Shown piece after piece: positions 3,248-57,360 of a stretch of 64,000 bases of DNA; the first letter of the stretch is position 1, and each line of letters opens with the position of its first letter. Below the pieces are notes generated by a model. The model had not been told where the DNA came from, did no database searches, and saw only the letters and a program-made list of their open reading frames with translations. This stretch comes from Escherichia coli (GTDB lineage Bacteria; Pseudomonadota; Gammaproteobacteria; Enterobacterales; Enterobacteriaceae), in the NCBI RefSeq assembly GCF_003334335.1, contig NZ_QOWQ01000013.1. One strand, given 5' to 3'. The translations under genes and the position numbers were made by a program.

Positions 3248-3444
3248 TCTACTCCGCAACACACTTCGATATACATCACAATTAAGGAAATCTACTTACA
3301 AGTTTGCATCACTGTAATGCGATCTGGTTCAAATAATTCACTTTCAAATGAATGCGTCAGTGGTGGCAAACGCATCAGGATCAAAGTGAACATCACGAAA
3401 CTTCTTACAATGGCGCATCACCTTCGGCATAAAAGGAAAAGAAG

Positions 3445-4995
3445 ATGCCCACTTCTCATGAAAATGCACTGCAACAACGTTGCCAGCAAATTGTCACCAG
3501 CCCAGTGCTTAGCCCGGAGCAGAAGCGCCATTTTCTGGCACTGGAAGCAGAAAACAATCTGCCTTATCCGCAGCTGCCTGCCGAGGCCCGCCGCGCGCTG
3601 GATGAGGGTGTAATCTGCGATATGTTTGAAGGTCATGCGCCGTACAAACCGCGCTATGTCTTACCCGATTACGCCCGTTTTCTGGCGAACGGTTCCGAAT
3701 GGCTGGAGCTGGAAGGCGCGAAAGATCTTGATGACGCACTCTCTCTGCTGACCATTCTTTACCACCACGTACCGTCGGTCACATCGATGCCGGTCTACCT
3801 GGGGCAACTGGATGCGTTGTTGCAACCGTATGTTAGAATTCTAACACAAGACGAGATCGATGTTCGAATAAAACGTTTCTGGCGTTACCTCGACAGAACC
3901 CTGCCAGACGCCTTTATGCACGCCAATATCGGCCCGTCTGATTCGCCCATTACCCGCGCGATCTTACGTGCAGACGCAGAGTTGAAGCAGGTTTCACCGA
4001 ACCTGACCTTTATCTACGATCCTGAAATCACCCCTGATGACCTGCTGCTGGAAGTGGCGAAGAACATCTGTGAATGTAGCAAACCGCACATCGCCAACGG
4101 TCCGGTGCATGATAAAATTTTCACAAAAGGGGGCTACGGGATTGTGAGCTGTTACAACTCACTGCCGCTGGCGGGTGGTGGCAGCACGCTGGTACGCCTT
4201 AACCTGAAAGCCATTGCCGAGCGCAGCGAATCGCTGGATGACTTCTTTACGCGCACTCTACCGCACTACTGCCAGCAGCAGATCGCCATCATCGATGCGC
4301 GGTGTGAATTCCTCTATCAACAATCACACTTCTTTGAGAATAGCTTCCTGGTGAAAGAAGGGCTGATTAACCCTGAACGTTTTGTGCCAATGTTTGGCAT
4401 GTATGGGCTGGCGGAAGCGGTTAACTTGCTGTGTGAGAAAGAAGGGATTGCCGCACGTTACGGTAAAGAAGCCGCCGCAAATGAAGTGGGTTATCGCATC
4501 AGCGCGCAACTGGCGGAGTTTGTCGCCAATACCCCCGTGAAATATGGCTGGCAAAAACGCGCCATGTTACACGCACAGTCGGGGATCAGTTCCGATATCG
4601 GCACCACGCCGGGCGCGCGTTTGCCGTATGGCGATGAGCCAGATCCGATCACCCATCTGCAAACTGTCGCCCCGCATCATGCTTATTATTATTCCGGCAT
4701 CAGCGACATTCTGACCCTCGACGAAACCATCAAACGTAACCCGCAGGCACTGGTACAGCTTTGCCTCGGTGCCTTTAAAGCCGGAATGCGTGAATTTACC
4801 GCCAATGTCAGCGGTAACGATCTGGTTCGCGTTACCGGTTATATGGTGCGTTTGTCGGATTTAGAAAAATATCGCGCCGAAGGTTCACGCACCAACACCA
4901 CCTGGCTGGGCGAAGAAGCCGCACGCAACACTCGTATTCTGGAACGCCAGCCGCGCGTGATAAGCCATGAACAGCAGATGCGCTTTAGTCAGTAA
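3445..4995 (+). CDS. yjjI: YjjI-family putative glycyl-radical enzyme (DUF3029)
   Basis: 516-aa ORF; 3' end overlaps the downstream radical-SAM activase gene; conserved position between deoC and yjjW. Confidence 0.85.
3831..3846. promoter_or_regulatory. DeoR operator, perfect palindrome (deoP1-associated, O1), inside yjjI coding sequence
   Basis: TGTTAGAATTCTAACA perfect 16-bp palindrome, exactly 599 bp from the 3232 palindrome; that spacing matches the two-operator deo promoter architecture as I recall it. Confidence 0.7.
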
Positions 4996-5830
4996 GATTA
5001 TCCCCTTCTCCTGCGTTGACGGGCCAGGCAGTCGTCTGGCTCTGTTTTTGCAGGGCTGCAATCTGCGCTGCAAAAACTGTCACAATCCGTGGACGATGGG
5101 ACGCTGCAATGATTGCGGAGAGTGCGTGCCACAGTGTCCGCATCAGGCGTTGCAGATTGTTGACGGCAAAGTGATGTGGAACGCTGTGGTCTGCGAGCAA
5201 TGTGATACCTGCCTGAAGATGTGTCCGCAACATGCCACGCCGATGGCGCAATCCATGAGCGTGGACGAAGTGCTTAGCCATGTCCGCAAAGCAGTGCTGT
5301 TTATCGAAGGGGTAACGGTAAGCGGCGGTGAAGCCACGACCCAGCTGCCGTTTGTGGTGGCGCTGTTTACTGCTATCAAAAACGATCCGCAACTGCACCA
5401 TCTCACCTGTCTGGTGGACAGTAACGGTATGTTGAGCGAAACCGGCTGGGAAAAATTGCTTCCGGTGTGCGACGGCGCAATGCTCGATCTCAAAGCGTGG
5501 GGGAGCGAATGTCATCAGCAATTAACCGGACGCGATAATCAGCAGATTAAGCGCAGCATCTGTTTGCTGGCAGAGCGTGGCAAGCTGGCAGAACTGCGTT
5601 TGCTGGTAATCCCTGGCCAGGTGGATTATTTGCAACACATCGAAGAACTGGCGGCGTTTATCAAGGGACTTGGCGATGTTCCGGTACGCCTGAACGCGTT
5701 TCATGCCCACGGCGTGTATGGCGAGGCGCAAAGCTGGGCGAGCGCCACGCCGGAAGACGTTGAGCCGTTGGCTGATGCATTAAAGGTGCGCGGGGTGAGC
5801 CGGTTGATATTTCCGGCGCTCTATTTGTGA
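4967..5830 (+). CDS. yjjW: Glycyl-radical enzyme activating protein (radical SAM, extra ferredoxin-like Cys clusters)
   Basis: 287 aa; [11 protein letters not shown] radical-SAM cysteine motif plus additional Cys-rich clusters ([24 protein letters not shown]); overlaps yjjI by 29 nt. Confidence 0.85.
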
Positions 5831-13944: not shown

Positions 13945-14140
<196 letters not shown>

Positions 14141-14175
14141 TTTCCAGCAATTACACCTCCGGCGATAATTAACTA

Positions 14176-14203
14176 TTGACGAAAAGCTGAAAACCACTAG
14201 AAT
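14176..14203 (+). promoter_or_regulatory. Sigma-70 promoter for tRNA-Leu (TTGACG -35, 16-bp spacer, TAGAAT -10, GC-rich discriminator)
   Basis: ttgacg at 14176-14181 and tagaat at 14198-14203, followed by gcgcctcc discriminator typical of stringently controlled stable-RNA promoters, about 40 bp upstream of the tRNA. Confidence 0.65.
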
Positions 14204-14244
14204 GCGCCTCCGTGGTAGCAATTCTTTTTAAGAATTGATGGTAT

Positions 14245-14331
14245 GCGAAGGTGGCGGAATTGGTAGACGCGCTAGCTTCAGGTGTTAGTGTCCTTACGGA
14301 CGTGGGGGTTCAAGTCCCCCCCCTCGCACCA
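14245..14331 (+). tRNA. leuQ: tRNA-Leu (anticodon CAG)
   Basis: GCGAAGGTGGCGGAATTGGTAGACGCGCTAGCTTCAGGTGTTAGTGTCCTTACGGACGTGGGGGTTCAAGTCCCCCCCCTCGCACCA; type II tRNA with long variable arm, CAG anticodon in CTTCAGGT loop, encoded CCA end. Single copy here; which of leuQ/P/V it corresponds to is not determinable. Confidence 0.9.
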
Positions 14332-14369
14332 ATTATCTTTACTTCCTTTCTTGTTTCTTCCCTGTTTTG

Positions 14370-14606
14370 TCATCCCTGATTCAAATTCATTAGCATCAGC
14401 ATGATGCCAGCACTAAGCGTCAGGCACGATGGTAGCAAAACGTAATGCCGTAACTGTTTGTGATACAGCATCACCGGCGTCAATACTAATCCCATAAGAA
14501 TGACAATCCGCCATTGATCCGGCGATAAATCCGCATACATCAGCCCTGCAATCAGCAATCCTGGCAGCAACACTCCCCAGCCACTGCCCAGCGTACGTTG
14601 CAACAT
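14370..14606 (-). CDS. yjjZ: Small membrane protein YjjZ
   Basis: 78-aa product MLQRTLGSGWGVLLPGLLIAGLMYADL... from the internal Met of track ORF 14370..14717. Confidence 0.7.
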   Translation of the reverse strand: MLQRTLGSGWGVLLPGLLIAGLMYADLSPDQWRIVILMGLVLTPVMLYHKQLRHYVLLPSCLTLSAGIMLMLMNLNQG

Positions 14607-14621
14607 GGTTTCATCTCTTTC

Positions 14622-14665
14622 ATTGATAATGATAACCAATATCATATGATAATTTTTATCATTTG
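14622..14665. promoter_or_regulatory. Fur box region upstream of yjjZ
   Basis: gataatgataaccaatatcatatgataatttttatcatt; overlapping matches to Fur consensus GATAATGATAATCATTATC. Confidence 0.6.
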
Positions 14666-14710
14666 CAAGCCAGAGAAATCCCTTGCTATCGGATAAACCT
14701 ATCGCTAGGA

Positions 14711-14730
14711 TTAGCAATCATTATCATTTA
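14711..14730. promoter_or_regulatory. Fur box immediately upstream of fhuF
   Basis: ttagcaatcattatcattta, 17 bp before the fhuF ATG. Confidence 0.6.
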
Positions 14731-14746
14731 GATTACTATCCCGATT

Positions 14747-15535
14747 ATGGCCTATCGTTCCGCACCGCTCTATGAAGATGTTATCTGGCGAACGCATCTC
14801 CAGCCACAGGATGCTGGGCTTGCACAAGCCGTACGTGCGACGATCGCCAAACATCGTGAACATTTGCTCGAGTTTATCCGCCTGGATGAACCCGCTCCGC
14901 TTAACGCCATGACGCTGGCGCAATGGTCATCACCGAATGCGCTAAGTTCTCTACTCGCGGTCTATTCCGATCATATCTATCGCAACCAACCAACGATGAT
15001 CCGCGAGAACAAACCGCTGATCTCACTATGGGCACAATGGTATATCGGCCTGATGGTGCCACCATTAATGCTGGCGCTACTGACGCAGGAAAAGGCATTA
15101 GATGTGTCGCCGGAACATTTCCACGTTGAGTTTCACGAAACCGGCCGTGCCGCCTGTTTCTGGGTCGATGTGTGTGAAGATAAAAACGCAACACCACATT
15201 CGCCGCAGCAGCGAATGGAAACGTTAATCAGCCAGGCGCTGGTTCCGGTTGTGCAGGCACTAGAAGCGACCGGAGAGATCAACGGCAAACTTATCTGGAG
15301 TAATACCGGTTATTTGATCAACTGGTATCTCACTGAGATGAAGCAACTGCTCGGCGAGGCGACGGTTGAATCGCTGCGCCATGCCCTCTTTTTTGAGAAA
15401 ACGCTCACGAACGGTGAAGATAATCCACTCTGGCGTACCGTGGTACTGCGCGACGGCCTGCTGGTGCGCCGCACTTGCTGCCAGCGTTATCGCTTACCGG
15501 ATGTGCAGCAATGTGGCGATTGTACGCTGAAATGA
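14747..15535 (+). CDS. fhuF: Ferric-siderophore reductase FhuF (C-terminal 2Fe-2S cluster)
   Basis: 262 aa ending CCQRYRLPDVQQCGDCTLK (C-C-x10-C-x2-C). Confidence 0.9.
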   Translation: MAYRSAPLYEDVIWRTHLQPQDAGLAQAVRATIAKHREHLLEFIRLDEPAPLNAMTLAQWSSPNALSSLLAVYSDHIYRNQPTMIRENKPLISLWAQWYIGLMVPPLMLALLTQEKALDVSPEHFHVEFHETGRAACFWVDVCEDKNATPHSPQQRMETLISQALVPVVQALEATGEINGKLIWSNTGYLINWYLTEMKQLLGEATVESLRHALFFEKTLTNGEDNPLWRTVVLRDGLLVRRTCCQRYRLPDVQQCGDCTLK

Positions 15536-15572
15536 AAGCACTGCCGGGGAAGTAAACCCGGCATAATGCGGA

Positions 15573-16250
15573 TTAATAGGGATGCAACACATTACTTGCT
15601 TCGCAATGCCGCATACATAACAGAATATCTGCGGCCTCCAACAACCCTGCATCAGAACTGACGCCCAGTTTCGACATCACATTAAATTTATGTGCACGGA
15701 TCGTTTTGATATTGCGTTTAAGCTGCTCGGCAATTTGTGTCATTGAGTAGCCACGCGACATAAAGCGCAATATTTCTCTCTCCGTCGGGCTTAACGTCCG
15801 GCTTTGGTTAATGTACCACTGATTGTTCAGTCGGTCGGTCGCCTGACGTACACCATTTAATGACAAAAAGAGTTCCTGATGAAAAATCTCCAGCGTTGAC
15901 GCTTTACTTAATACACCGTCCAGCGGTGATGGCGACAATGAACCAATCAGCCGAGCTTCAATATCATCATCCGCAATAACTAAACGCCGGGTACGCGGAA
16001 ACTTAATCGCCAGTTCAGTCAGGCAAGATAATCCCTCTCTGCGCTCACTTCTCATGGCAGAAAAAGAAAAAATAACCGCCGCAAATGAGATCCGCGACAT
16101 GGCATCCTGAAATGACTCCTGACTGGTATAGGTATGGAGCTTATAAGGGTTACCCGCAAACTTTCTGAATAAACTCTCAATACCGATACTGCTCATGACG
16201 CATTTTTCTATGAGTGCGACATTTCTCTTCTTAATTCGGCTGTGTTCCAT
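15573..16250 (-). CDS. bglJ: LuxR-family transcriptional activator BglJ
   Basis: 225 aa with C-terminal LuxR HTH ([24 protein letters not shown]). Confidence 0.85.
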
Positions 16251-16933
16251 TCTGCGGCATCTCCATAAACAGAAGGCAAGTTAAGTTCTCTTGCACCCTG
16301 CGCGCTATTTATCCATGCATACATTTCAGCGTTGCTGTGAATTGCCAGTCGACGCATCGCACTGTTTTTTTGGGCGCTGATAGTTTTATTACTTTTCTTA
16401 AGCAACGAAGCTATCTGGTTGATGCCCCATCCTTTACCTAATAGCCGCAGTACCTTGCGCTCTGAAAGAGTGAGAATGACGGAGCGATAGCTAAAATCAT
16501 GAGTTTCAGTCATTGCCGGAGAGGTCAGCATGGCGCTGATACGCTCTGCGTGCGTATTGCCGGAACGTACGGTCTTGACCAGATTCTCAATGGGTTCAAC
16601 ATCAGACAATAACGTCGCCGTAGGGCACATGAGCAATTCTACTGCCTGGGAATACCAGGAGCGTGACACCATGAAAACCCAGTGAATTTCCCGATATTGT
16701 GAAATTAAAGAATAATAATGCTCACAAACAGAACGTGGATCTTCACTTTCACCGGCTAAATCAGCAATGACTAATCCGGAACGACGTAATTGTAATAAGG
16801 TAAGGTCCTCCGCAGAGGCGCTGGATATTATTTCATATTCAGGGAAGTGAGTCCTCATGACCTCTTTTAACCCTGCTTGCATAACAGGTATTTTACTGAT
16901 AACAATTCCATTTTTGCAGCATCCTGGCAACAT
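16208..16933 (-). CDS. yjjQ: LuxR-family transcriptional regulator YjjQ
   Basis: 241 aa, C-terminal LuxR HTH ([22 protein letters not shown]); overlaps bglJ by 43 nt. Confidence 0.85.
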
Positions 16934-17551
16934 ATTTCCTCCACATCCACTGTCTAAAAATCATGATGGTTTATTCAGGATATTCATTCCTTAAATGTTT
17001 CCAGCAAATTAATAGATTAAGCGAATAAATTATCCTTAGCATTCACTTTCATATCAGCATACTCCTGCTGCACAACAACTCCACTGCATGTGTCAGAAGG
17101 TTAGCATCAAATGATAACCTGGTGAAATAGCCTGGAGACATTTAAAATATCTACATTAAGTTGTTAGGAATACTTAATGAAAAACAGAAATCACATTCAT
17201 TTAATTTATAATTAAATGATATCCCTTCCCGCAGAATGAAAAATCACACAACCAATATTTATTCAATGAAATCTGATGGTTTTAACTTGTTAACATTAAA
17301 AAACGTGCCCGGTTATCTATAATCCTGATTCGTAAAGGCCAAACAATAAATTCATTATAGTGATAATATTCATGTGATAGTTTGTTTGCGGCGAGAGATA
17401 ATTCGCTTTTTATCACCGAGCTTGTCCCGATAACCAGGATTAATCAGCGCAATTTTGATCTTAACCTACCGCAAAACAACCGTGCTTCATGATACAAATG
17501 GATTCTCATTATCTGAACAATACGCAGCACGTCTATGACAAAGGGCGAGTT

Positions 17552-18786
<1,235 letters not shown>

Positions 18787-18892
18787 AATTGCCTCGCTTA
18801 AGCACACGGATGAGAGACAGCCTCCTCTCCTCCGTGTGTTACTATAAAAGTTATCTCCCTTCTCGTTCATCGTTCCATATTTGAGAAACAGT

Positions 18893-19432
18893 ATGTCTTC
18901 CAGAGTTTTGACCCCGGACGTCGTTGGTATTGACGCCCTGGTACACGATCACCAAACCGTTCTGGCAAAAGCTGAAGGCGGTGTGGTTGCCGTATTTGCT
19001 AACAATGCCCCGGCGTTTTATGCCGTCACGCCTGCACGCCTGGCTGAACTGCTGGCGCTGGAAGAAAAGCTGGCGCGTCCGGGAAGCGATGTCGCTCTGG
19101 ACGATCAACTCTATCAGGAACCGCAAGCCGCTCCCGTTGCTGTACCCATGGGGAAATTCGCCATGTATCCGGACTGGCAACCCGATGCCGACTTTATCCG
19201 CCTGGCGGCGCTATGGGGCGTGGCACTAAGAGAGCCGGTGACCACCGAAGAACTGGCCTCATTCATTGCCTACTGGCAGGCGGAAGGTAAAGTCTTTCAC
19301 CATGTACAGTGGCAACAAAAACTGGCGCGCAGCCTGCAAATCGGTCGTGCCAGCAACGGCGGACTGCCGAAACGAGATGTGAATACGGTCAGCGAACCTG
19401 ACAGCCAAATTCCACCAGGATTCAGAGGGTAA
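18893..19432 (+). CDS. dnaT: Primosomal protein DnaT
   Basis: 179 aa from [29 protein letters not shown]; immediately upstream of dnaC. Confidence 0.9.
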
Positions 19433-19434
19433 CG

Positions 19435-20172
19435 ATGAAAAACGTTGGCGACCTGATGCAACGCCTGCAAAAAATGATGCCTGCCCATATCAAACCTGCT
19501 TTCAAAACGGGTGAAGAACTACTGGCCTGGCAGAAAGAACAAGGGGCGATCCGCTCCGCCGCTCTCGAACGTGAAAATCGGGCGATGAAAATGCAGCGCA
19601 CCTTTAACCGCTCCGGTATTCGTCCACTGCATCAGAACTGCTCCTTTGAGAACTATCGCGTTGAGTGTGAAGGGCAAATGAATGCGTTAAGCAAAGCGCG
19701 CCAGTATGTCGAAGAGTTTGACGGCAACATCGCCAGCTTCATCTTTTCTGGTAAGCCAGGAACCGGTAAAAACCATCTGGCGGCAGCAATCTGCAACGAG
19801 CTGCTGCTACGCGGTAAATCCGTATTGATCATCACCGTGGCCGATATTATGTCGGCGATGAAAGATACCTTCAGGAATAGCGGTACCAGCGAAGAACAAC
19901 TGCTTAACGATCTGAGCAACGTTGATCTGCTGGTGATCGATGAGATCGGCGTGCAGACCGAATCGAAATACGAAAAAGTGATCATCAACCAGATCGTCGA
20001 TCGCCGCTCTTCTTCCAAACGCCCAACCGGGATGCTGACCAACAGTAATATGGAAGAGATGACCAAGTTGCTGGGCGAACGCGTGATGGACCGTATGCGC
20101 CTGGGTAACAGTTTGTGGGTGATCTTCAACTGGGATAGCTACCGTAGCCGGGTAACGGGTAAAGAGTATTAA
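19435..20172 (+). CDS. dnaC: DNA replication helicase loader DnaC
   Basis: 245 aa; Walker A GKPGTGKNHLAAAI, Walker B LLVIDEIG. Confidence 0.95.
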   Translation: MKNVGDLMQRLQKMMPAHIKPAFKTGEELLAWQKEQGAIRSAALERENRAMKMQRTFNRSGIRPLHQNCSFENYRVECEGQMNALSKARQYVEEFDGNIASFIFSGKPGTGKNHLAAAICNELLLRGKSVLIITVADIMSAMKDTFRNSGTSEEQLLNDLSNVDLLVIDEIGVQTESKYEKVIINQIVDRRSSSKRPTGMLTNSNMEEMTKLLGERVMDRMRLGNSLWVIFNWDSYRSRVTGKEY

Positions 20173-20217
20173 TCCCCGTTTCTGGCGGTATACTGCGACA
20201 CAATTCCACCTTGAGTA

Positions 20218-20715
20218 ATGATGATGAAAACTGTTAAACATCTTCTGTGCTGTGCCATTGCCGCCAGCGCATTAATTTCCACCGGGGTGCATGCTGCGTC
20301 CTGGAAAGATGCGCTCTCCAGCGCCGCCAGCGAACTTGGCAACCAAAACAGCACGACACAGGAAGGCGGTTGGTCGCTCGCGTCATTAACTAACTTGCTT
20401 AGCAGCGGGAACCAGGCCTTAAGCGCAGATAACATGAACAATGCCGCAGGCATTCTGCAATACTGCGCGAAGCAAAAGCTGGCGTCGGTAACCGATGCCG
20501 AAAACATCAAGAATCAGGTGCTGGAAAAGCTGGGCCTGAACAGTGAAGAGCAAAAAGAGGACACCAACTATCTGGACGGCATTCAGGGTTTGCTGAAAAC
20601 CAAAGATGGTCAGCAACTCAATCTGGATAACATCGGAACGACTCCGCTGGCAGAAAAGGTGAAAACCAAAGCCTGCGATCTGGTGTTAAAGCAGGGGCTG
20701 AACTTCATTTCCTGA
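20218..20715 (+). CDS. yjjA: Secreted/periplasmic protein YjjA (DUF2501)
   Basis: About 164 aa with N-terminal signal peptide (MKTVKHLLCCAIAASALISTGVHA); start may be 1-2 codons downstream. Confidence 0.8.
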   Translation: MMMKTVKHLLCCAIAASALISTGVHAASWKDALSSAASELGNQNSTTQEGGWSLASLTNLLSSGNQALSADNMNNAAGILQYCAKQKLASVTDAENIKNQVLEKLGLNSEEQKEDTNYLDGIQGLLKTKDGQQLNLDNIGTTPLAEKVKTKACDLVLKQGLNFIS

Positions 20716-20968
20716 ACCGTTAAACGCCGCGTTTTAGCTGTTACCCGGCTGACGCGGCTCTCTCCTGCCCTTTTCCCTGCTCGTGGACGGTTTTACCCCT
20801 GTTACACGGGAAGCGACCGCGATCAAAAAAGTCTGTTTATAAACTAATTCCTAACAACATCGCATTTTTTTGACACTAGAATTGCAGCAATATAGCGACG
20901 CCATTACATTGTGCTTCTCAAAAAGCTTAAACGTTGGCTAAACGGCCCGGTTTAGTGAGGATCGCCCG

Positions 20969-23260
20969 TTGTCAGAACTACTCTCTTTCGCCCTTTTTCT
21001 CGCCTCTGTGCTGATTTACGCATGGAAAGCGGGACGTAACACCTGGTGGTTTGCAGCCACATTAACGGTGCTGGGGCTATTTGTCGTTTTAAATATCACC
21101 CTGTTTGCCAGCGACTATTTTACTGGCGATGGTATTAACGACGCGGTTCTCTATACCTTAACCAACAGCCTGACCGGTGCTGGCGTCAGCAAATACATCC
21201 TGCCGGGTATCGGCATTGTGCTGGGGCTGACGGCGGTGTTCGGTGCGCTGGGCTGGATCCTGCGCCGTCGTCGTCATCATCCGCACCATTTTGGTTACAG
21301 CCTGCTGGCACTCTTACTGGCGCTGGGTTCAGTGGATGCCAGCCCGGCATTTCGTCAGATAACGGAACTGGTGAAATCCCAGTCACGCGACGGCGACCCG
21401 GACTTTGCGGCTTATTATAAAGAGCCGTCGAAAACTATCACTGACCCGAAACTCAACCTGGTTTATATCTACGGCGAAAGTCTCGAGCGAACCTATTTTG
21501 ATAACGAAGCTTTCCCGGATCTCACGCCTGAACTGGGCGCGTTGAAAAATGAAGGCCTAGATTTCAGCCACACGCAGCAGCTGCCAGGAACGGATTACAC
21601 GATTGCGGGCATGGTGGCTTCTCAGTGCGGCATACCGCTGTTTGCCCCCTTTGAAGGCAACGCCTCCGCTTCTGTTTCCAGCTTCTTCCCGCAGAACATC
21701 TGTCTGGGCGATATCCTGAAAAACTCGGGTTATCAGAACTATTTCGTGCAGGGCGCGAATCTGCGTTTTGCCGGTAAAGATGTGTTCCTGAAGTCGCATG
21801 GCTTCGACCACTTATACGGCTCAGAAGAGCTGAAAAGCGTGGTCGCCGACCCGCACTATCGCAACGACTGGGGATTCTACGACGATACCGTTCTCGATGA
21901 AGCGTGGAAAAAGTTTGAAGAGCTTTCCCGCTCAGGTCAGCGATTCTCACTGTTTACCCTGACAGTCGATACCCATCACCCGGATGGTTTTATCTCGCGC
22001 ACCTGTAACCGCAAAAAATATGATTTTGACGGTAAGCCGAATCAGTCATTCAGCGCGGTAAGTTGCAGCCAGGAGAACATCGCGACGTTTATCAACAAAA
22101 TCAAAGCGTCACCGTGGTTTAAAGATACTGTCATCGTCGTCTCTTCTGACCATTTAGCGATGAACAACACGGCGTGGAAATACCTCAATAAGCAGGATCG
22201 CAATAACCTGTTTTTTGTCATCCGTGGCGACAAGCCGCAGCAAGAGACGCTGGCAGTGAAGCGTAATACGATGGATAACGGCGCGACGGTGCTGGACATT
22301 CTCGGTGGCGATAACTATCTCGGACTTGGTCGTAGCAGTTTATCCGGGCAGTCAATGTCGGAAATCTTCCTCAATATCAAAGAGAAAACATTGGCGTGGA
22401 AGCCGGATATCATCCGCCTGTGGAAATTCCCTAAAGAGATGAAAGAGTTCACCATCGACCAGCAGAAAAACATGATTGCCTTCTCGGGTAGCCATTTCCG
22501 TTTGCCGCTGCTGTTGCGGGTTTCAGACAAACGCGTGGAACCGCTGCCGGAAAGCGAATACTCAGCACCGCTGCGTTTCCAGCTGGCCGATTTCGCTCCA
22601 CGCGACAATTTCGTCTGGGTTGACCGTTGCTATAAGATGGCACAACTCTGGGCTCCGGAACTGGCACTTTCCACCGACTGGTGTGTCTCGCAGGGGCAGC
22701 TTGGCGGTCAGCAAATTGTCCAGCATGTTGATAAAACAATGTGGAAGGGCAAAACGGCATTTAAAGATACGGTCATCGACATGGCGCGTTACAAAGGCAA
22801 TGTCGATACGCTGAAGATTGTTGATAACGATATTCGCTACAAAGCCGACAGTTTCATCTTTAACGTCGCCGGTGCGCCAGAAGAGGTGAAACAGTTTAGC
22901 GGGATTTCCCGTCCGGAGTCGTGGGGCCGCTGGTCCAACGCGCAGCTGGGCGATGAAGTAAAAATCGAGTACAAGCATCCGCTGCCGAAGAAATTTGACC
23001 TGGTGATTACCGCCAAAGCATACGGCAATAACGCCAGCCGTCCTATTCCGGTACGCGTAGGCAATGAAGAACAAACTCTTGTGCTGGGCAATGAAGTGAC
23101 CACCACCACACTGCATTTCGATAACCCAACCGATGCCGACACACTGGTAATTGTGCCGCCGGAACCTGTCTCAACCAACGAAGGGAATATCCTCGGACAC
23201 TCGCCGCGTAAGCTCGGGATCGGCATGGTGGAAATTAAAGTTGTGGAACGTGAAGGGTAA
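20969..23260 (+). CDS. opgB: Phosphoglycerol transferase I (osmoregulated periplasmic glucan biosynthesis)
   Basis: 763 aa; TTG start predicted by track; N-terminal TM segments plus sulfatase-like catalytic domain. Confidence 0.9.
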
Positions 23261-23265
23261 TTCCT

Positions 23266-23320
23266 GACTGATGTGTAGGTCGCATAAGGTGCGACCTACA
23301 CACCTTCTCCGGCCTACAAA
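23266..23320. repeat. REP palindrome downstream of opgB (likely also a transcript-stabilising/terminating hairpin)
   Basis: gtgtaggtcgcataaggtgcgacctacac perfect inverted repeat followed by ccggcctacaaa. Confidence 0.7.
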
Positions 23321-23399
23321 ACATCATTGAGAAACAGAAAAAAAACAGCGCCCAACACTTCCCCGGACGCTGCATGGCAACTTTAATAATCTCGCCTTA

Positions 23400-24422
23400 T
23401 CAGAAAGTAATTACACCCTTAATCAACTCACGATTGTTAATCACATCGCGCTCGTAGGTTTCTGCCAGCGTGGCGAACGGATAGCGATGGGTTAACATCA
23501 TGTCAGCAGTGATTTTTCCTTCCGCCATCAGTCGACCGACTTTAGCAAAATCTTCCGGCGTGGCGTTGCGGCTGCCCATCATCGTCGTTTCTTTTTTATG
23601 GAATTCCGGATCGGAGAACTGCAACTCACCTTTAAACAGGCCGACAAATACCACCGTGCCGCCGTGACGAATCAGATTTACGGTGTTATTCATCGCATGT
23701 TGATTACCTGTCGCGTCGATCACTTTCTGCGCCAGCGAACCACCAAACTGCGCCCGCAGCTGCGCGTCAAAATCTTCGGCTGACGGGTCCAGCACGGGCA
23801 ACTCCAGACGCGTTGCCACATGTTCTCGGCGTGCCGGACTGGTATCCGCCACCACCACCTGTGCGCCATCAGCTTTAGCGATTGCCGCCGCGCCCAGACC
23901 GATTGGCCCCGCCCCGACCACCAGCACCTGCTCGCCGGGAGCAATGGCTGCACGACGCACCGCATGTGCGCTAATAGCGAAAGGTTCAATCAATGCTGCC
24001 GCCTGCGGGTCAATACCGTCTGCGGGCAAAATGTTCGCCACCGGCACGCTCAAATACTCACTAAAACCACCATCCTGATGCACACCAATAACTGAAATTT
24101 TTTCACAGCAATTGGTACGCCCGCTTTTACACGCCGGACATTGCTGACAGGCAACATAAGGGATCACAGCAACTTGCTGACCATTTTTAAGATCAGCAAT
24201 ATTTTTACCCAGCCCAACAATCTCCCCACATATTTCATGGCCTAAAACCCGTGGATAACTAAAAAATGGTTGATTTCCACCCCAGGCATGAATATCGGTA
24301 CCGCAAATCCCGACAGACTTAATTTTTATTAATGCTTCATTGTCACCCGGAATAGGTATCTCGCGTTGTTTCCAGACTAATTCTTTCGGCTGCTGGCAAA
24401 TTAAAACATTCATTGTAGACAT
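23400..24422 (-). CDS. lgoD: L-galactonate 5-dehydrogenase (Zn-dependent MDR family)
   Basis: 340 aa from MSTMNVLICQQPKEL; GHEICGEI zinc-binding motif and VVGAGPIGL Rossmann motif. Confidence 0.9.
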   Translation of the reverse strand: MSTMNVLICQQPKELVWKQREIPIPGDNEALIKIKSVGICGTDIHAWGGNQPFFSYPRVLGHEICGEIVGLGKNIADLKNGQQVAVIPYVACQQCPACKSGRTNCCEKISVIGVHQDGGFSEYLSVPVANILPADGIDPQAAALIEPFAISAHAVRRAAIAPGEQVLVVGAGPIGLGAAAIAKADGAQVVVADTSPARREHVATRLELPVLDPSAEDFDAQLRAQFGGSLAQKVIDATGNQHAMNNTVNLIRHGGTVVFVGLFKGELQFSDPEFHKKETTMMGSRNATPEDFAKVGRLMAEGKITADMMLTHRYPFATLAETYERDVINNRELIKGVITF

Positions 24423-24560
24423 GATTCGGCTCTCCATTTTTTGTTGCCTTAGATATCAATGAAAATGAAAAATGGCAGCGGAACGGAAAATCTGTTTTGT
24501 GAAAACACACGCATAAAAATGTTTTAAATCGGGTTTTAATGGACTCACAAGGAGGAAAAT

Positions 24561-25475
24561 ATGAGTCGCTCACAAAATTTACGCCACAATGTGATTAACC
24601 AGGTCATTGATGATATGGCGCGGGGTCATATCCCTTCCCCACTTCCATCGCAAAGTGCGCTGGCGGAAATGTACAACATCAGCCGCACTACAGTGCGTCA
24701 TATTCTCAGCCACTTACGCGAATGCGGCGTCTTAACGCAGGTTGGAAACGACTATGTTATTGCGCGTAAACCTGACCATGATGACGGTTTCGCCTGTACT
24801 ACCGCTTCAATGAGTGAACAAAACAAAGTGTTTGAGCAGGCTTTTTTCACGATGATAAACCAGCGTCAGTTACGCCCTGGGGAAACTTTTTCTGAACTGC
24901 AACTGGCGCGGGCCGCGGGTGTCAGCCCGGTGGTTGTAAGAGAATATCTTTTAAAATTCGGCCGTTATAATCTTATTCAAAGCGAAAAGCGCGGCCAGTG
25001 GAGCATGAAGCAATTCGATCAATCCTACGCCGAGCAGCTGTTTGAGCTACGCGAAATGCTCGAAACACATTCACTTCAGCACTTTCTCAACCTGCCTGAT
25101 CATGATCCCCGCTGGCTGCAGGCGAAAACCATGCTCGAACGTCATCGGCTACTGCGTGACAACATCGGCAATAGCTTTCGCATGTTCTCGCAACTTGACA
25201 GAGATTTTCACTCCTTACTGCTTTCAGCTGCCGACAATATCTTTTTTGATCAATCGCTTGAGATCATCTCAGTCATCTTTCATTTTCACTATCAATGGGA
25301 CGAAAGCGATCTTAAACAGCGCAATATCATTGCCGTCGATGAGCATATGACCATTCTCAGCGCTCTGATTTGCCGCAGTGACCTTGATGCCACCCTTGCG
25401 CTCCGTAACCATTTGAATTCAGCTAAACAATCAATGATTCGATCCATTAATGAGAACACGCGTTATGCTCATTAA
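24561..25475 (+). CDS. lgoR: GntR/FadR-like transcriptional regulator of L-galactonate catabolism
   Basis: 304 aa; divergent from lgoD, upstream of lgoT; N-terminal HTH (ALAEMYNISRTTVRHIL). Confidence 0.85.
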   Translation: MSRSQNLRHNVINQVIDDMARGHIPSPLPSQSALAEMYNISRTTVRHILSHLRECGVLTQVGNDYVIARKPDHDDGFACTTASMSEQNKVFEQAFFTMINQRQLRPGETFSELQLARAAGVSPVVVREYLLKFGRYNLIQSEKRGQWSMKQFDQSYAEQLFELREMLETHSLQHFLNLPDHDPRWLQAKTMLERHRLLRDNIGNSFRMFSQLDRDFHSLLLSAADNIFFDQSLEIISVIFHFHYQWDESDLKQRNIIAVDEHMTILSALICRSDLDATLALRNHLNSAKQSMIRSINENTRYAH

Positions 25476-25689
25476 GTACGGATTAAAAACAGCAAACTAT
25501 TAGCGGGTGCACGGTTTTATCAAAAGATAAATACCGGGAAATTCCCGCTTACCTATGCTCACAATCAGTCGACTAAAAATGTTTTTGTGAGCGGTAGTAA
25601 AGTCCTAAAACTTTAACCTGCCGTTAATGTCAACCTTGCGTAATGCACAATTACGTAAACAATTAAAATTATAAATACAGGAGTCCGGC

Positions 25690-27051
25690 GTGGAAAAAGA
25701 AAATATCACCCTCGATCCGCGTTCTTCATTTACTCCATCTTCGTCGGCAGATATTCCCGTGCCACCAGATGGATTAGTTCAACGCAGTACCCGAATTAAA
25801 CGCATTCAAACCACCGCCATGTTGTTATTATTTTTTGCGGCGGTAATCAATTATCTCGACCGCAGTTCGCTGTCGGTAGCAAATTTAACGATTCGTGAAG
25901 AATTGGGATTAAGTGCCACCGAAATCGGCGCTTTGCTCTCCGTGTTTTCACTCGCTTACGGGATTGCGCAACTTCCTTGCGGCCCACTATTGGATCGTAA
26001 AGGCCCGCGCCTGATGCTGGGACTCGGGATGTTCTTCTGGTCACTGTTCCAGGCAATGTCTGGCATGGTGCACAGCTTTACGCAGTTCGTGTTGGTGCGT
26101 ATCGGTATGGGGATTGGTGAAGCGCCGATGAACCCATGCGGTGTAAAAGTCATTAACGACTGGTTCAACATCAAAGAGCGCGGACGCCCGATGGGCTTCT
26201 TCAACGCAGCTTCTACCATTGGCGTTGCCGTAAGCCCACCGATTCTGGCGGCGATGATGCTGGTGATGGGCTGGCGTGGGATGTTTATTACCATTGGTGT
26301 GCTGGGGATTTTTCTCGCCATTGGCTGGTATATGCTCTATCGCAACCGCGAGCACGTAGAACTGACTGCCGTTGAACAAGCTTACCTCAATGCTGGTAGC
26401 GTGAATGCCCGCCGAGATCCGCTCAGTTTTGCCGAATGGCGCAGCCTGTTCCGTAACCGCACAATGTGGGGAATGATGCTCGGATTCAGTGGCATCAACT
26501 ACACTGCGTGGCTGTATCTGGCCTGGCTTCCTGGTTACCTGCAAACAGCCTATAACCTGGATTTAAAAAGCACAGGGTTGATGGCGGCTATCCCTTTCCT
26601 GTTTGGGGCTGCCGGGATGCTGGTCAACGGTTACGTTACTGACTGGCTGGTCAAAGGGGGAATGGCTCCGATTAAAAGCCGTAAGATCTGCATTATTGCC
26701 GGGATGTTCTGTTCTGCCGCCTTTACGCTGGTCGTACCGCAAGCGACAACATCCATGACGGCGGTTCTGCTGATTGGCATGGCACTGTTCTGTATTCACT
26801 TTGCCGGAACATCCTGCTGGGGCTTGATCCACGTCGCAGTTGCTTCTCGCATGACTGCGTCGGTGGGCAGTATCCAGAACTTTGCCAGCTTCATCTGCGC
26901 CTCTTTCGCGCCGATCATTACTGGTTTTATTGTTGATACCACCCATTCATTCCGTCTGGCACTAATCATCTGCGGTTGCGTCACTGCGGCGGGTGCACTG
27001 GCGTACATCTTCCTGGTTCGTCAGCCGATCAACGACCCACGGAAAGATTAA
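25690..27051 (+). CDS. lgoT: MFS L-galactonate:H+ symporter
   Basis: 453 aa, 12-TM MFS with anion:cation symporter signature. Confidence 0.85.
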   Translation: MEKENITLDPRSSFTPSSSADIPVPPDGLVQRSTRIKRIQTTAMLLLFFAAVINYLDRSSLSVANLTIREELGLSATEIGALLSVFSLAYGIAQLPCGPLLDRKGPRLMLGLGMFFWSLFQAMSGMVHSFTQFVLVRIGMGIGEAPMNPCGVKVINDWFNIKERGRPMGFFNAASTIGVAVSPPILAAMMLVMGWRGMFITIGVLGIFLAIGWYMLYRNREHVELTAVEQAYLNAGSVNARRDPLSFAEWRSLFRNRTMWGMMLGFSGINYTAWLYLAWLPGYLQTAYNLDLKSTGLMAAIPFLFGAAGMLVNGYVTDWLVKGGMAPIKSRKICIIAGMFCSAAFTLVVPQATTSMTAVLLIGMALFCIHFAGTSCWGLIHVAVASRMTASVGSIQNFASFICASFAPIITGFIVDTTHSFRLALIICGCVTAAGALAYIFLVRQPINDPRKD

Positions 27052-27060
27052 TCTCCCTAT

Positions 27061-27094
27061 GCCCGATAACATTTTGCTTATCGGGCATTTTTAT
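27061..27094. terminator. Bidirectional Rho-independent terminator between lgoT and tsr
   Basis: gcccgataa-cattttgc-ttatcgggc stem-loop followed by attttta; A/T tracts on both sides. Confidence 0.6.
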
Positions 27095-27099
27095 GGCGA

Positions 27100-28764
27100 T
27101 TAAAACGTTTCCCAGTTCTCCCCGCTATCTGCCACGGCCATTTTACGCGGCGCAGCTGGCGTCACGGTTTTTACCACAGCCGATGTTTCACGCTGCTGTT
27201 GCTGCTGTTGCTGAATCCGGAACACTGCCACAGCTTCGGTCAGGCGACTGGCCTGCTCTTCCAGCGCGGCGGCGGCAGCGGCAGATTCTTCCACCAGCGC
27301 AGCGTTCTGTTGGGTTACTCTGTCCATCTCAGCGACCGCTAAGCCAACCTGATCGATACCACGGCTCTGCTCATCAGAAGCCGAAGCAATTTCGCCCATA
27401 ATGTCCGTCACGCGGGTCACGGCACTGACAATCTCCGCCATTGTTTCCCCTGCGCTTTCGACCAGCGTAGAGCCAACATCTACTTTCCCCACCGAGTCTT
27501 CAATCAGGCTTTTAATTTCACGAGCCGCCTGAGCGCTGCGCTGGGCCAGATTACGCACTTCACCCGCGACCACCGCAAAACCGCGCCCTTGCTCACCCGC
27601 GCGCGCTGCTTCAACCGCCGCGTTCAAAGCGAGAATATTGGTCTGGAAGGCAATGCCGTCAATTACGCTGATAATATCGGCGATTTTCTGCGAACTGGTG
27701 GAGATATCGCGCATGGTCTGCACCACGTTATCCACCACTTTGCCGCCGCGTTGCGCCGTTTCAGAAGCACTTAACGCCAGGTGGCTGGCCTGGCGCGCAT
27801 TTTCGGCGTTCTGCTTCACCGTTGCGGTCAGTTGCTCCATGCTGGCTGCCGTCTCTTCCAGCGAAGCGGCCTGTTGCTCGGTGCGCGAAGAGAGATCGTT
27901 ATTGCCGGTAGCGATTTCGCTGGCACCGCTATAGATGGCATTGGCCCCGTTGCGCACATCACCGACGGTACGCATCAGCTCTCCCTGCATATGGCGCAAA
28001 CTCTCAGCCAGTTGCCCCATCTCATTAGAGCCATCCACCTCAATCGGTTTCACCAGATCGCCGCCTGCAATATGACGAATGCTGTCAATCAGGCGATTCA
28101 TTGGCGCTACCAACGAGGCTTTAATACCGAACCAGACGGCGAAGATGACCGCCAGTACGACGATCATCACGCCCACCAGAATCCACATCGCCTGGCTGTA
28201 GGAGGCATTATTATCGCTGACGGCGATATCATAGAGCCGATCGTTTTGCTCCATGTAAGCCACATACTGCTTCTCGAAACCGTCCTGATATCCCTGGGTC
28301 GGCTGATCAAAGAACTCGTTGATTTTGCCTGCACCTAACAGTTGGATCAGCTCCGCCAGCGCATTGTGATAAATATCGTAATTACGTTTGATCTCTGCCG
28401 CTGCGGCGGTGCTCTGACGCGGGTCACGCGGCAACGCTTCGTAATCCGCCCAGTTTTTTTCCGCCTGTTTCAGCGAAATACTGGCACTCTGCATCAGCTC
28501 AGCAACGGTTGAACCGCTACCAATATTATTCTGATCCATCATGTAGCGGATACCCGCGCGGTTGAGGGTGTTACGCGTCTGCAACAACGCGACCCAGCTG
28601 CCATTCAGCGTGGATTGCTGCTGGCGAATGGTTTGTAAAACAGTGAAATTTTCTTTGTCATTCTTTAAGGCATTAAAGAACAGACCGCCTGATGTCAGTT
28701 GTAAAAGGCCAAAAACGGCCAAAACCAGCAGTAAGCTGGTCACGATCTTGATACGTTTTAACAT
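27100..28764 (-). CDS. tsr: Methyl-accepting chemotaxis protein I (serine chemoreceptor)
   Basis: 554 aa from [22 protein letters not shown]; HAMP and MCP signalling domain; C-terminal NWETF pentapeptide; run of 7 Gln in the C-terminal linker. Confidence 0.95.
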
Positions 28765-28795
28765 GGTTTCTCTTTCCACTAGACAGATACACTGG

Positions 28796-28822
28796 TTGTC
28801 GGCCTGGTGGTGGAAAACTTTA
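28796..28822 (-). promoter_or_regulatory. Sigma-28 (FliA) class III promoter of tsr
   Basis: Minus strand reads TAAAGTTT-N11-GCCGACAA, matching the FliA consensus TAAAGTTT-N11-GCCGATAA, about 35-60 bp upstream of the tsr start. Confidence 0.7.
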
Positions 28823-57048: not shown

Positions 57049-57360
57049 GATCTTTAAATATACCAACCGGATAATTGGCTGCGCATAATCCTGCATGAAG
57101 GAAGTTGTATTAAATATCTCACCTGCCATGAAATATTTCCCATCCACAAAATGAGCGATTTTTGATAGCACCTTACCATTTTACGTCTAAAATACAAAAT
57201 ACATTTTATTATACTTAAACCCATAATTATGCATAGAGAAATAAAATGATTACCGGGTGAGATAATGATAAAAGATAAGTTTCTGTGCGAAGCTTATCTT
57301 TACCCATCCCCCTGATTATTTTAGATTTAGAAGAACATTTCACAATTCAAGGATAAAAAT

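Follow-up and report, generated by a model that had tools for sequence, protein, structure and literature searches.

The AT-rich spacer flanked by the divergent operons yjjQ-bglJ and yjjP-yjjB in Escherichia coli as a probable H-NS-silenced control region

The spacer that separates the divergent operons yjjQ-bglJ and yjjP-yjjB in this Escherichia coli contig is, at a probability of roughly 90%, a shared regulatory region whose AT-rich centre would be silenced by H-NS and whose silencing would be countered by LeuO, with MarA also binding the spacer and IS elements disturbing it. All coordinates refer to the window, that is, the whole 64-kb stretch of DNA that was analyzed. The spacer and its flanking genes are as follows.

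16934 to 17551, unstranded: yjjQ/yjjP intergenic spacer, 618 bp (open reading frame [ORF] list, RefSeq annotation, and composition)
16208 to 16933, minus strand: yjjQ, LuxR-type regulator, first gene of the yjjQ-bglJ operon (ORF of 241 aa; RefSeq)
15573 to 16250, minus strand: bglJ (RefSeq; NCBIfam NF008548, 383 bits versus a cutoff of 176)
17552 to 18322, plus strand: yjjP, ThrE family, annotated as a putative succinate exporter (ORF of 256 aa; RefSeq)
18313 to 18786, plus strand: yjjB (RefSeq; NCBIfam NF007391, 325 bits versus a cutoff of 249)

The gene names were taken from RefSeq, where both a 100%-identical copy of the spacer and MG1655 are annotated, and all four agree with the initial annotation. 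BglJ and YjjB score over curated NCBIfam equivalog cutoffs, while YjjQ is placed only as a LuxR-type relative and YjjP only as a ThrE-family relative. The genes are arranged as two operons, with the expected overlaps of 43 nt between bglJ and yjjQ and of 10 nt between yjjB and yjjP. Neither RefSeq copy has a feature annotated between yjjQ and yjjP. The GC contents of yjjQ (44.9%) and bglJ (45.1%) are low compared with the 51 to 53% of neighboring genes (51% for genic DNA overall); values for neighboring genes and intergenic regions were taken from the annotation of strain 537-20, which was used for the colinear part at 14244 to 28807 only.

The initial annotation had described an AT-rich region of about 600 bp between the divergent operons, with A/T runs concentrated at 17100 to 17400, and the observation is confirmed in both respects: the region coincides exactly with the annotated spacer, and its lowest 300 bp are at 17088 to 17387. 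The spacer has a GC content of 34.3% (65.7% AT), compared with 50.7% GC (49.3% AT) for the window, in which only 2.0% of 618-bp windows have a GC content as low or lower. Control regions silenced by H-NS are recognized by an AT content well over the genome average across at least 200 to 300 bp, and the spacer has such a composition in the following two segments.

16857 to 17465, unstranded: AT-rich tract (100-bp GC scan)
17088 to 17387, unstranded: AT-rich core, the putative main H-NS-bound segment (composition; H-NS binding from the K-12 literature)

The tract, defined by 100-bp windows with less than 40% GC, consists of two overlapping runs (16857 to 17118 and 17065 to 17465); on the yjjQ side it reaches about 75 bp into the 5' end of the gene, and on the yjjP side about 85 bp remain between it and the ATG. 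The core has a GC content of 29% (71% AT), which ranks third lowest among such segments in the 64 kb, and GC falls to 24 to 30% in 100-bp windows across 17101 to 17375. Runs of A/T of at least 7 bases occur at 16.2 per kb in the spacer and 5.7 per kb window-wide, a difference of about threefold, with the longest run in the spacer covering 19 nt (17199 to 17217), and TpA steps make up 8.4% of the dinucleotides in the spacer versus 4.5% in the window. Beyond the spacer, 100-bp windows at 36 to 41% GC occur in places over the first approximately 280 bp of yjjQ (16651 to 16950). The spacer is not the most AT-rich stretch of the window, as the region at 57079 to 59258 is longer and lower in GC, and in the colinear part the nearby short spacers yjjZ/fhuF (32% GC) and lgoD/lgoR (36% GC) are equally AT-rich. 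Since AT-rich spacers are common upstream of genes, composition alone is no proof of silencing.

The evidence for silencing comes from K-12. A megablast search with the 618 bp found the spacer in 5,424 of 5,426 complete E. coli genomes, nearly always as a single chromosomal copy, and an intact spacer is missing from 13 E. coli genomes. It matches the MG1655 spacer (4602859 to 4603476; the MG1655 coordinate is 4620410 minus the window position) at 611 of 618 positions (98.9%), with seven single nucleotide polymorphisms (SNPs). Because the two spacers are this similar and equal in length, with zero indels, results on regulation in K-12 transfer to this strain. The yjjQ-bglJ operon is repressed by H-NS and activated by LeuO according to several papers that cite Stratmann 2008 (PMC5025477, PMC4264507, PMC2646131), and loss of hns and stpA would allow its expression (PMC3950696; likewise PMC5025477 and PMC2646131). 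To judge by its title, as given in the reference list of PMC3950696, the paper by Stratmann, Madhusudan, and Schnetz (2008, J Bacteriol 190:926) treats H-NS and LeuO as regulators of both yjjQ-bglJ and the divergent yjjP. In genomic SELEX the region was recorded as an RpoD-bound spacer in the form "yjjP < HNS > yjjQ" (PMC3946193). The H-NS repression of yjjQ-bglJ claimed in the initial annotation is thus published for K-12 (PMC5025477, PMC3950696, PMC2646131, PMC4264507, with the SELEX result in PMC3946193), and the interpretation of the spacer as H-NS silenced is supported by this literature in combination with the 98.9% identity. Both silencing by H-NS and antisilencing by LeuO date from the 2008 publication, and the interpretation is therefore not new. 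When LeuO activates the native operon, BglJ is still too scarce to matter in laboratory conditions (PMC5025477).

Insertions in the same spacer have been reported from experimental adaptation. During adaptation of K-12 to the mouse gut, IS insertions recurred in the yjjP/yjjQ spacer, appearing in 57% of wild-type mice (PMC4674774), and one such insertion raised yjjP about 2-fold aerobically (PMC5094792). The effect of IS insertion in the spacer was later ascribed to succinate transport (PMC12332998).

A further regulator is MarA, for which chromatin immunoprecipitation sequencing (ChIP-seq) in enterotoxigenic E. coli (ETEC) H10407 gave a yjjP<>yjjQ peak over the site gcatcaaatgataac (PMC5684230, Table 1), a sequence that bound MarA in vitro at 0.3 uM, the lowest concentration tried (PMC5684230). 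The leuL<>leuO region is also tabulated as a MarA target (PMC5684230). The published 15-mer has exactly one occurrence in the 64-kb window:

17104 to 17118, plus strand: MarA binding site (marbox) GCATCAAATGATAAC (exact match to the published 15-mer)

Targets of MarA/SoxS/Rob are marked by a marbox, which the spacer carries, while binding itself is known from the ETEC H10407 literature. The center of the marbox lies about 85 to 100 bp from either of the predicted yjjQ and yjjP promoters. The exact 15-mer was used after an improvised marbox consensus was dropped, having missed the published site and given fewer matches than chance. The MarA site was absent from the initial annotation, and its presence in this strain is a small addition of the present analysis.

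Taken as a mechanism, these reports suggest that H-NS binds the AT-rich and TpA-rich center of the spacer, from which a filament or bridge, as we infer, would spread over or trap the flanking promoters, leaving yjjQ-bglJ essentially silent and yjjP at a low level of expression. LeuO, a LysR-type regulator, would bind within the spacer and counteract H-NS at yjjQ-bglJ, and MarA would bind at its own site. IS elements landing in the spacer would disturb this arrangement and raise yjjP, and such insertions would be selected in the mouse gut. H-NS repression, LeuO antagonism, selection by H-NS in vitro, MarA binding, and the IS effect are all results that others obtained with K-12 or ETEC, and they would apply to this strain by virtue of the 98.9% identity. 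The bases that nucleate H-NS, the positions of the promoters, and the choice between filament and bridging are putative.

The locus is widely conserved in the Enterobacteriaceae. Scanning one genome per species with YjjP yielded 80 loci from Escherichia, Citrobacter, Salmonella, Enterobacter, Lelliottia, Klebsiella, Raoultella, Kluyvera, Kosakonia, Phytobacter, and other genera. yjjQ-bglJ is divergent from yjjP in 75 of the 80 loci, or 75 of the 76 with enough upstream sequence, and these represent at least 15 genera. The other five comprise four truncated contigs and one locus with bglJ and no YjjQ match. The latter belongs to Enterobacter sp. Bisph1 (L040), where bglJ is detectable in the interval at approximately 3250 to 5000 and no YjjQ match (E ≤ 1e-8) was found before yjjP; yjjQ may have been lost or have decayed in this organism. 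In Enterobacter, Lelliottia, Leclercia, and relatives (L026 to L044 and others), dnaT is 1.1 to 1.9 kb farther from yjjB than in Escherichia, which implies that one or more extra genes have been inserted between yjjB and dnaT.

In 53 species the two operons are directly adjacent, and their spacer is 347 to 709 bp long (median, 458) with a median GC content of 36.4%, in loci of 49 to 56% GC. In a further 22 loci (for example, L008, L045, and L073), which include Klebsiella, Raoultella, Kluyvera, Citrobacter amalonaticus, C. sedlakii, and others, the operons are about 2.6 kb apart. One insert was examined, that of Klebsiella pneumoniae (L059, 2641 to 4723), and it contains pobA, encoding 4-hydroxybenzoate 3-monooxygenase (TIGR02360, 651 bits versus a cutoff of 539), and a gene for an AraC-type regulator; the other 21 split loci have the same spacing and GC profile. 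Split loci contain a block of 25 to 35% GC within about 300 bp upstream of yjjQ, and the 250 bp upstream of yjjP have a GC content of 39 to 46%. As the loci split by pobA keep the AT-rich block near yjjQ, the block belongs to yjjQ-bglJ, and the upstream region of yjjP by itself has an ordinary composition. The center of the spacer, at about 17180 to 17400, is unalignable even among Escherichia clades yet remains AT-rich. Such conservation of composition without conservation of sequence, which is seen across the family, is what a composition-reading H-NS would require, and it argues against a hidden gene. The flanking proteins also evolve at different rates, with identities between genera of 35 to 74% for YjjQ and BglJ versus 83 to 91% for YjjP, and the low GC content of yjjQ and bglJ is found in every genus.

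On either side of this variable center are promoter-proximal blocks that are conserved, along with several predicted promoters.

16938 to 16942, minus strand: yjjQ Shine-Dalgarno sequence GGAGG (CCTCC on the plus strand), conserved across 70 loci
17029 to 17057, minus strand: predicted sigma-70-like promoter CTGATA-17-GATAAT towards yjjQ (consensus scan)
17177 to 17205, plus strand: predicted yjjP promoter ATGAAA-17-TTTAAT (PMC3946193; placed by reading the sequence), in the nonconserved core
17296 to 17323, plus strand: best consensus promoter match, TTAAAA-16-TATAAT, 10/12, towards yjjP (consensus scan)
17455 to 17460, plus strand: TTGATC block upstream of yjjP (cross-species alignment)
17490 to 17498, plus strand: TGATACAAA, extended -10-like element TGnTAnAAn, conserved at a fixed 32 nt 3' of TTGATC
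17541 to 17545, plus strand: yjjP Shine-Dalgarno sequence AAGGG, conserved at 0.8 to 0.9 across 78 loci

The consensus scan gave six sigma-70-like sites in the spacer versus 4.0 ± 2.0 expected, which is no excess. CTGATA-17-GATAAT and ATGAAA-17-TTTAAT are the predicted promoters of yjjQ-bglJ and yjjP, respectively, in the genomic SELEX study (PMC3946193). On the yjjQ side, the block with the GATAAT -10 hexamer is kept in Escherichia, Citrobacter, and Salmonella, and the Shine-Dalgarno sequence and ATG are conserved. On the yjjP side, TTG[AG]TC is present in 79 of 79 sequences at 75 to 103 bp ahead of the yjjP ATG, with a T-rich or TGCACA-like upstream flank. Comparison of TTGATC by eye with the sigma-70 -35, CRP, FNR, ArcA, and NarL consensus sequences gave no fitting half-site, and 32 nt separate it from the -10-like element. 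That element, TGATACAAA, is a candidate for the yjjP core promoter. The match TTAAAA-16-TATAAT is not conserved across genera and may be a spurious promoter of the kind typical of AT-rich DNA; the SNP at 17321 (A here, T in MG1655) changes its TATTAT to a perfect TATAAT.

The same alignment bears on where yjjP starts. The N terminus of YjjP, the Shine-Dalgarno sequence, and the ATG at 17552 are conserved in 78 loci. An alternative ATG at 17489 would give an ORF of 277 aa and a spacer of 555 bp. The abstract of Stratmann 2008 reportedly gives an intergenic region of 555 bp, which corresponds to 16934 to 17488 and implies the upstream ATG, while RefSeq and the cross-species alignment favor 17552. 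Because the -10-like element overlaps the ATG at 17489, which is not conserved as a start, ATG 17552 is the conserved and real start of yjjP.

The term "xenogeneic" in the initial annotation is the part that did not hold, for a spacer present in 5,424 of 5,426 genomes and an arrangement present in 75 species representatives mark resident, old DNA. Horizontally acquired DNA has a patchy distribution, and the distribution seen here is the reverse; the term is unsupported for a locus that belongs to the E. coli core and has long been part of the Enterobacteriaceae. That yjjQ-bglJ forms a recently acquired genomic islet under xenogeneic silencing in the strict sense is accordingly very improbable, and this reading is already largely refuted by distribution. 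It would draw on the 45% GC of yjjQ and bglJ compared with 51 to 53% in their neighbors, on the much faster divergence of YjjQ and BglJ than of YjjP, and on the tRNA-Leu gene that lies about 1.2 kb from the bglJ 3' end, beyond fhuF and yjjZ. The atypical composition of the two genes is real, but with yjjQ low in GC in every genus it gives no sign of recency and suggests genes that have long been resident and have kept their bias; the annotated neighbors and the repeat scan revealed no integrase, IS element, or direct repeats flanking the locus, and the divergent arrangement is shared by 75 of 76 species loci. It is barely credible that the unusual length of the spacer reflects an unannotated gene for a small protein or small RNA. 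Two small ORFs are present, one on the minus strand at 17282 to 17416 (44 aa, GTG start) and one on the plus strand at 16857 to 16994 (45 aa), together with a weak terminator-like hairpin at 17390 to 17407, but a terminator count of 1 versus 0.7 expected is at chance level, and neither the MG1655 RefSeq annotation nor Rfam has an entry in the spacer. At E ≤ 1, Rfam matches in 14000 to 21000 were limited to tRNA, naRNA4, and a chance match to snoR116 (20536-21, E = 0.88, far under the gathering score). As the sequence under the 44-aa ORF is unalignable between Escherichia clades, no coding or structural conservation is possible there, and the small ORFs were rejected for want of conserved sequence beneath them.

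A different objection is that the spacer is an ordinary long promoter region with two promoter sets, UP elements, and MarA and LeuO sites, in which H-NS silencing is of no consequence. The six sigma-70-like sites, the specific regulator site at 17104 to 17118, the conserved promoter-proximal blocks on both the yjjQ and yjjP sides, and the equally AT-rich spacers at yjjZ/fhuF and lgoD/lgoR would all be accommodated by such a view. It does not account for the published derepression in hns mutants and the in vitro selection by H-NS of a sequence 98.9% identical to this one, nor for an AT-rich center that lies between the conserved promoter blocks rather than on them and keeps its composition without its sequence, and in the split loci the separate upstream region of yjjP is ordinary in composition. 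This reading is quite unlikely, and the H-NS-silenced control region remains the preferred interpretation.

Within that silenced region, nucleation of H-NS is plausible, and a motif scan suggests where it might take place at the level of bases. A high-affinity nucleation motif for H-NS, tCG(t/a)T(a/t)AATT (TCGWTWAATT), was reportedly described by Lang et al. in 2007. No exact TCGWTWAATT is present in the spacer, and matches at 9 of 10 positions number three (17007 to 17016, 17197 to 17206, and 17210 to 17219) versus 0.5 expected, a modest enrichment as judged from 1,000 shuffles of the spacer itself, of which 16 reached three. Two of the three near matches are the arms of one palindrome.

17197 to 17219, unstranded: perfect 23-bp palindrome TCATTTAATT-TAT-AATTAAATGA, each arm matching TCGWTWAATT at 9 of 10 positions (repeat scan)
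17007 to 17016, minus strand: third 9/10 match to the H-NS motif, TCTATTAATT (motif scan)

The strict H-NS 10-mer TCGATAAATT is not enriched in the spacer, where two matches with two mismatches are about the window average. The palindrome sits in the middle of the core and is one of only five distinct perfect palindromes of its kind in the 64-kb window; the repeat scan of the spacer otherwise gave short pairs at chance level only. The palindrome is unchanged in MG1655 and absent from other Escherichia clades, that is, lineage specific. Its inner part, TAATTTATAATTA, fits the T-N11-A box of LysR-type regulators (17199 to 17211), a fit that is trivially likely by chance in AT-rich DNA. From its sequence the palindrome is a reasonable candidate for H-NS nucleation or for LeuO binding.

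The published K-12 model, in which H-NS acts on both divergent units and is antagonized by LeuO, is the model proposed here for what is the same locus, of the same length and with the same flanking genes; the difference lies in the seven SNPs, among which is the one that creates the perfect TATAAT hexamer. The bgl and leuO loci likewise have an AT-rich control region, strong repression by H-NS in the laboratory, and antagonism by LeuO or BglJ-RcsB. bgl is also activated by IS insertion (PMC9678765, PMC2646131), and leuL<>leuO resembles the yjjQ/yjjP spacer in carrying a MarA site (PMC5684230). In contrast to bgl, where silencing involves H-NS sites upstream and downstream and a loop, the published binding at the yjjQ/yjjP spacer is central, between the divergent promoters, and the windows of 36 to 41% GC at 16651 to 16950 are no more than a hint of a bgl-like element downstream, in yjjQ. 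The H-NS targets in Salmonella pathogenicity islands share with this spacer an AT content higher than that of the genome, whereas the yjjQ locus is core and ancient and has a control region of about 0.6 kb rather than being a multigene island.

Work of the Schnetz laboratory made the locus, its silencer, and its antisilencer textbook examples from 2008 onward, and their discovery value here is small. The spacer serves as a positive control, as it shows that a reading of composition alone can find real H-NS targets. Besides the MarA site, the small additions made here are the finding that the AT-rich block is linked to yjjQ across genera, the conserved elements upstream of yjjP, and the yjjP start codon. 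A tentative extension, for which the odds are rather against, is that the AT-rich block is an ancient yjjQ-linked silencer module in which composition is selected across the Enterobacteriaceae and not sequence. Such a module would travel with yjjQ-bglJ past an inserted pobA and regulator gene, where yjjP would be left with an ordinary promoter, and in Escherichia would also restrain yjjPB. The LeuO/BglJ-RcsB circuit would then be tied into the mar stress response through MarA sites in the spacer and in the leuO region. If so, the restraint of yjjPB would be a side effect, which would explain the repeated selection in the gut of IS insertions that uncouple it. The spacers split by pobA offer a natural experiment on whether repression of yjjP in E. 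coli is a by-product of the adjoining yjjQ silencer. The spacer also touches on gut adaptation, being a recurrent IS target in mice next to yjjPB, which is annotated as a succinate exporter.

Several other features of the window were observed. A single tRNA-Leu(CAG) gene is present at 14245 to 14331, in contrast to the three copies in tandem at this place in MG1655 (leuQ, leuP, and leuV) and in strain 537-20; the single copy was probably left by a deletion through recombination between copies. Between rsmC and this tRNA gene, at 14023 to 14105, is an Rfam match to naRNA4 (CssrE, a REP-derived nucleoid-associated RNA) with 73 bits, which is over the gathering score. Colinearity with strain 537-20, which has the hpa operon there, ends at about 28800, and over about 28800 to 52000 the window continues into the hsd restriction-modification region. 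The best matches to 28000 to 52000 among complete E. coli genomes are only about 97% identical, which indicates that the source strain is not closely represented among them. The longest tracts of the lowest GC content in the window (27 to 30%) are at 57079 to 59258 and fall within an ORF on the plus strand at 57361 to 59499. This ORF encodes 712 aa with pentapeptide repeats and lies downstream of a yjiL-like gene for an acyl-CoA dehydratase activase; its NCBIfam matches are under the cutoffs, and PADLOC gave no match to it. Compared with the yjjQ spacer, the region at 57079 to 59258 is the stronger candidate for DNA that is truly foreign and targeted by H-NS.
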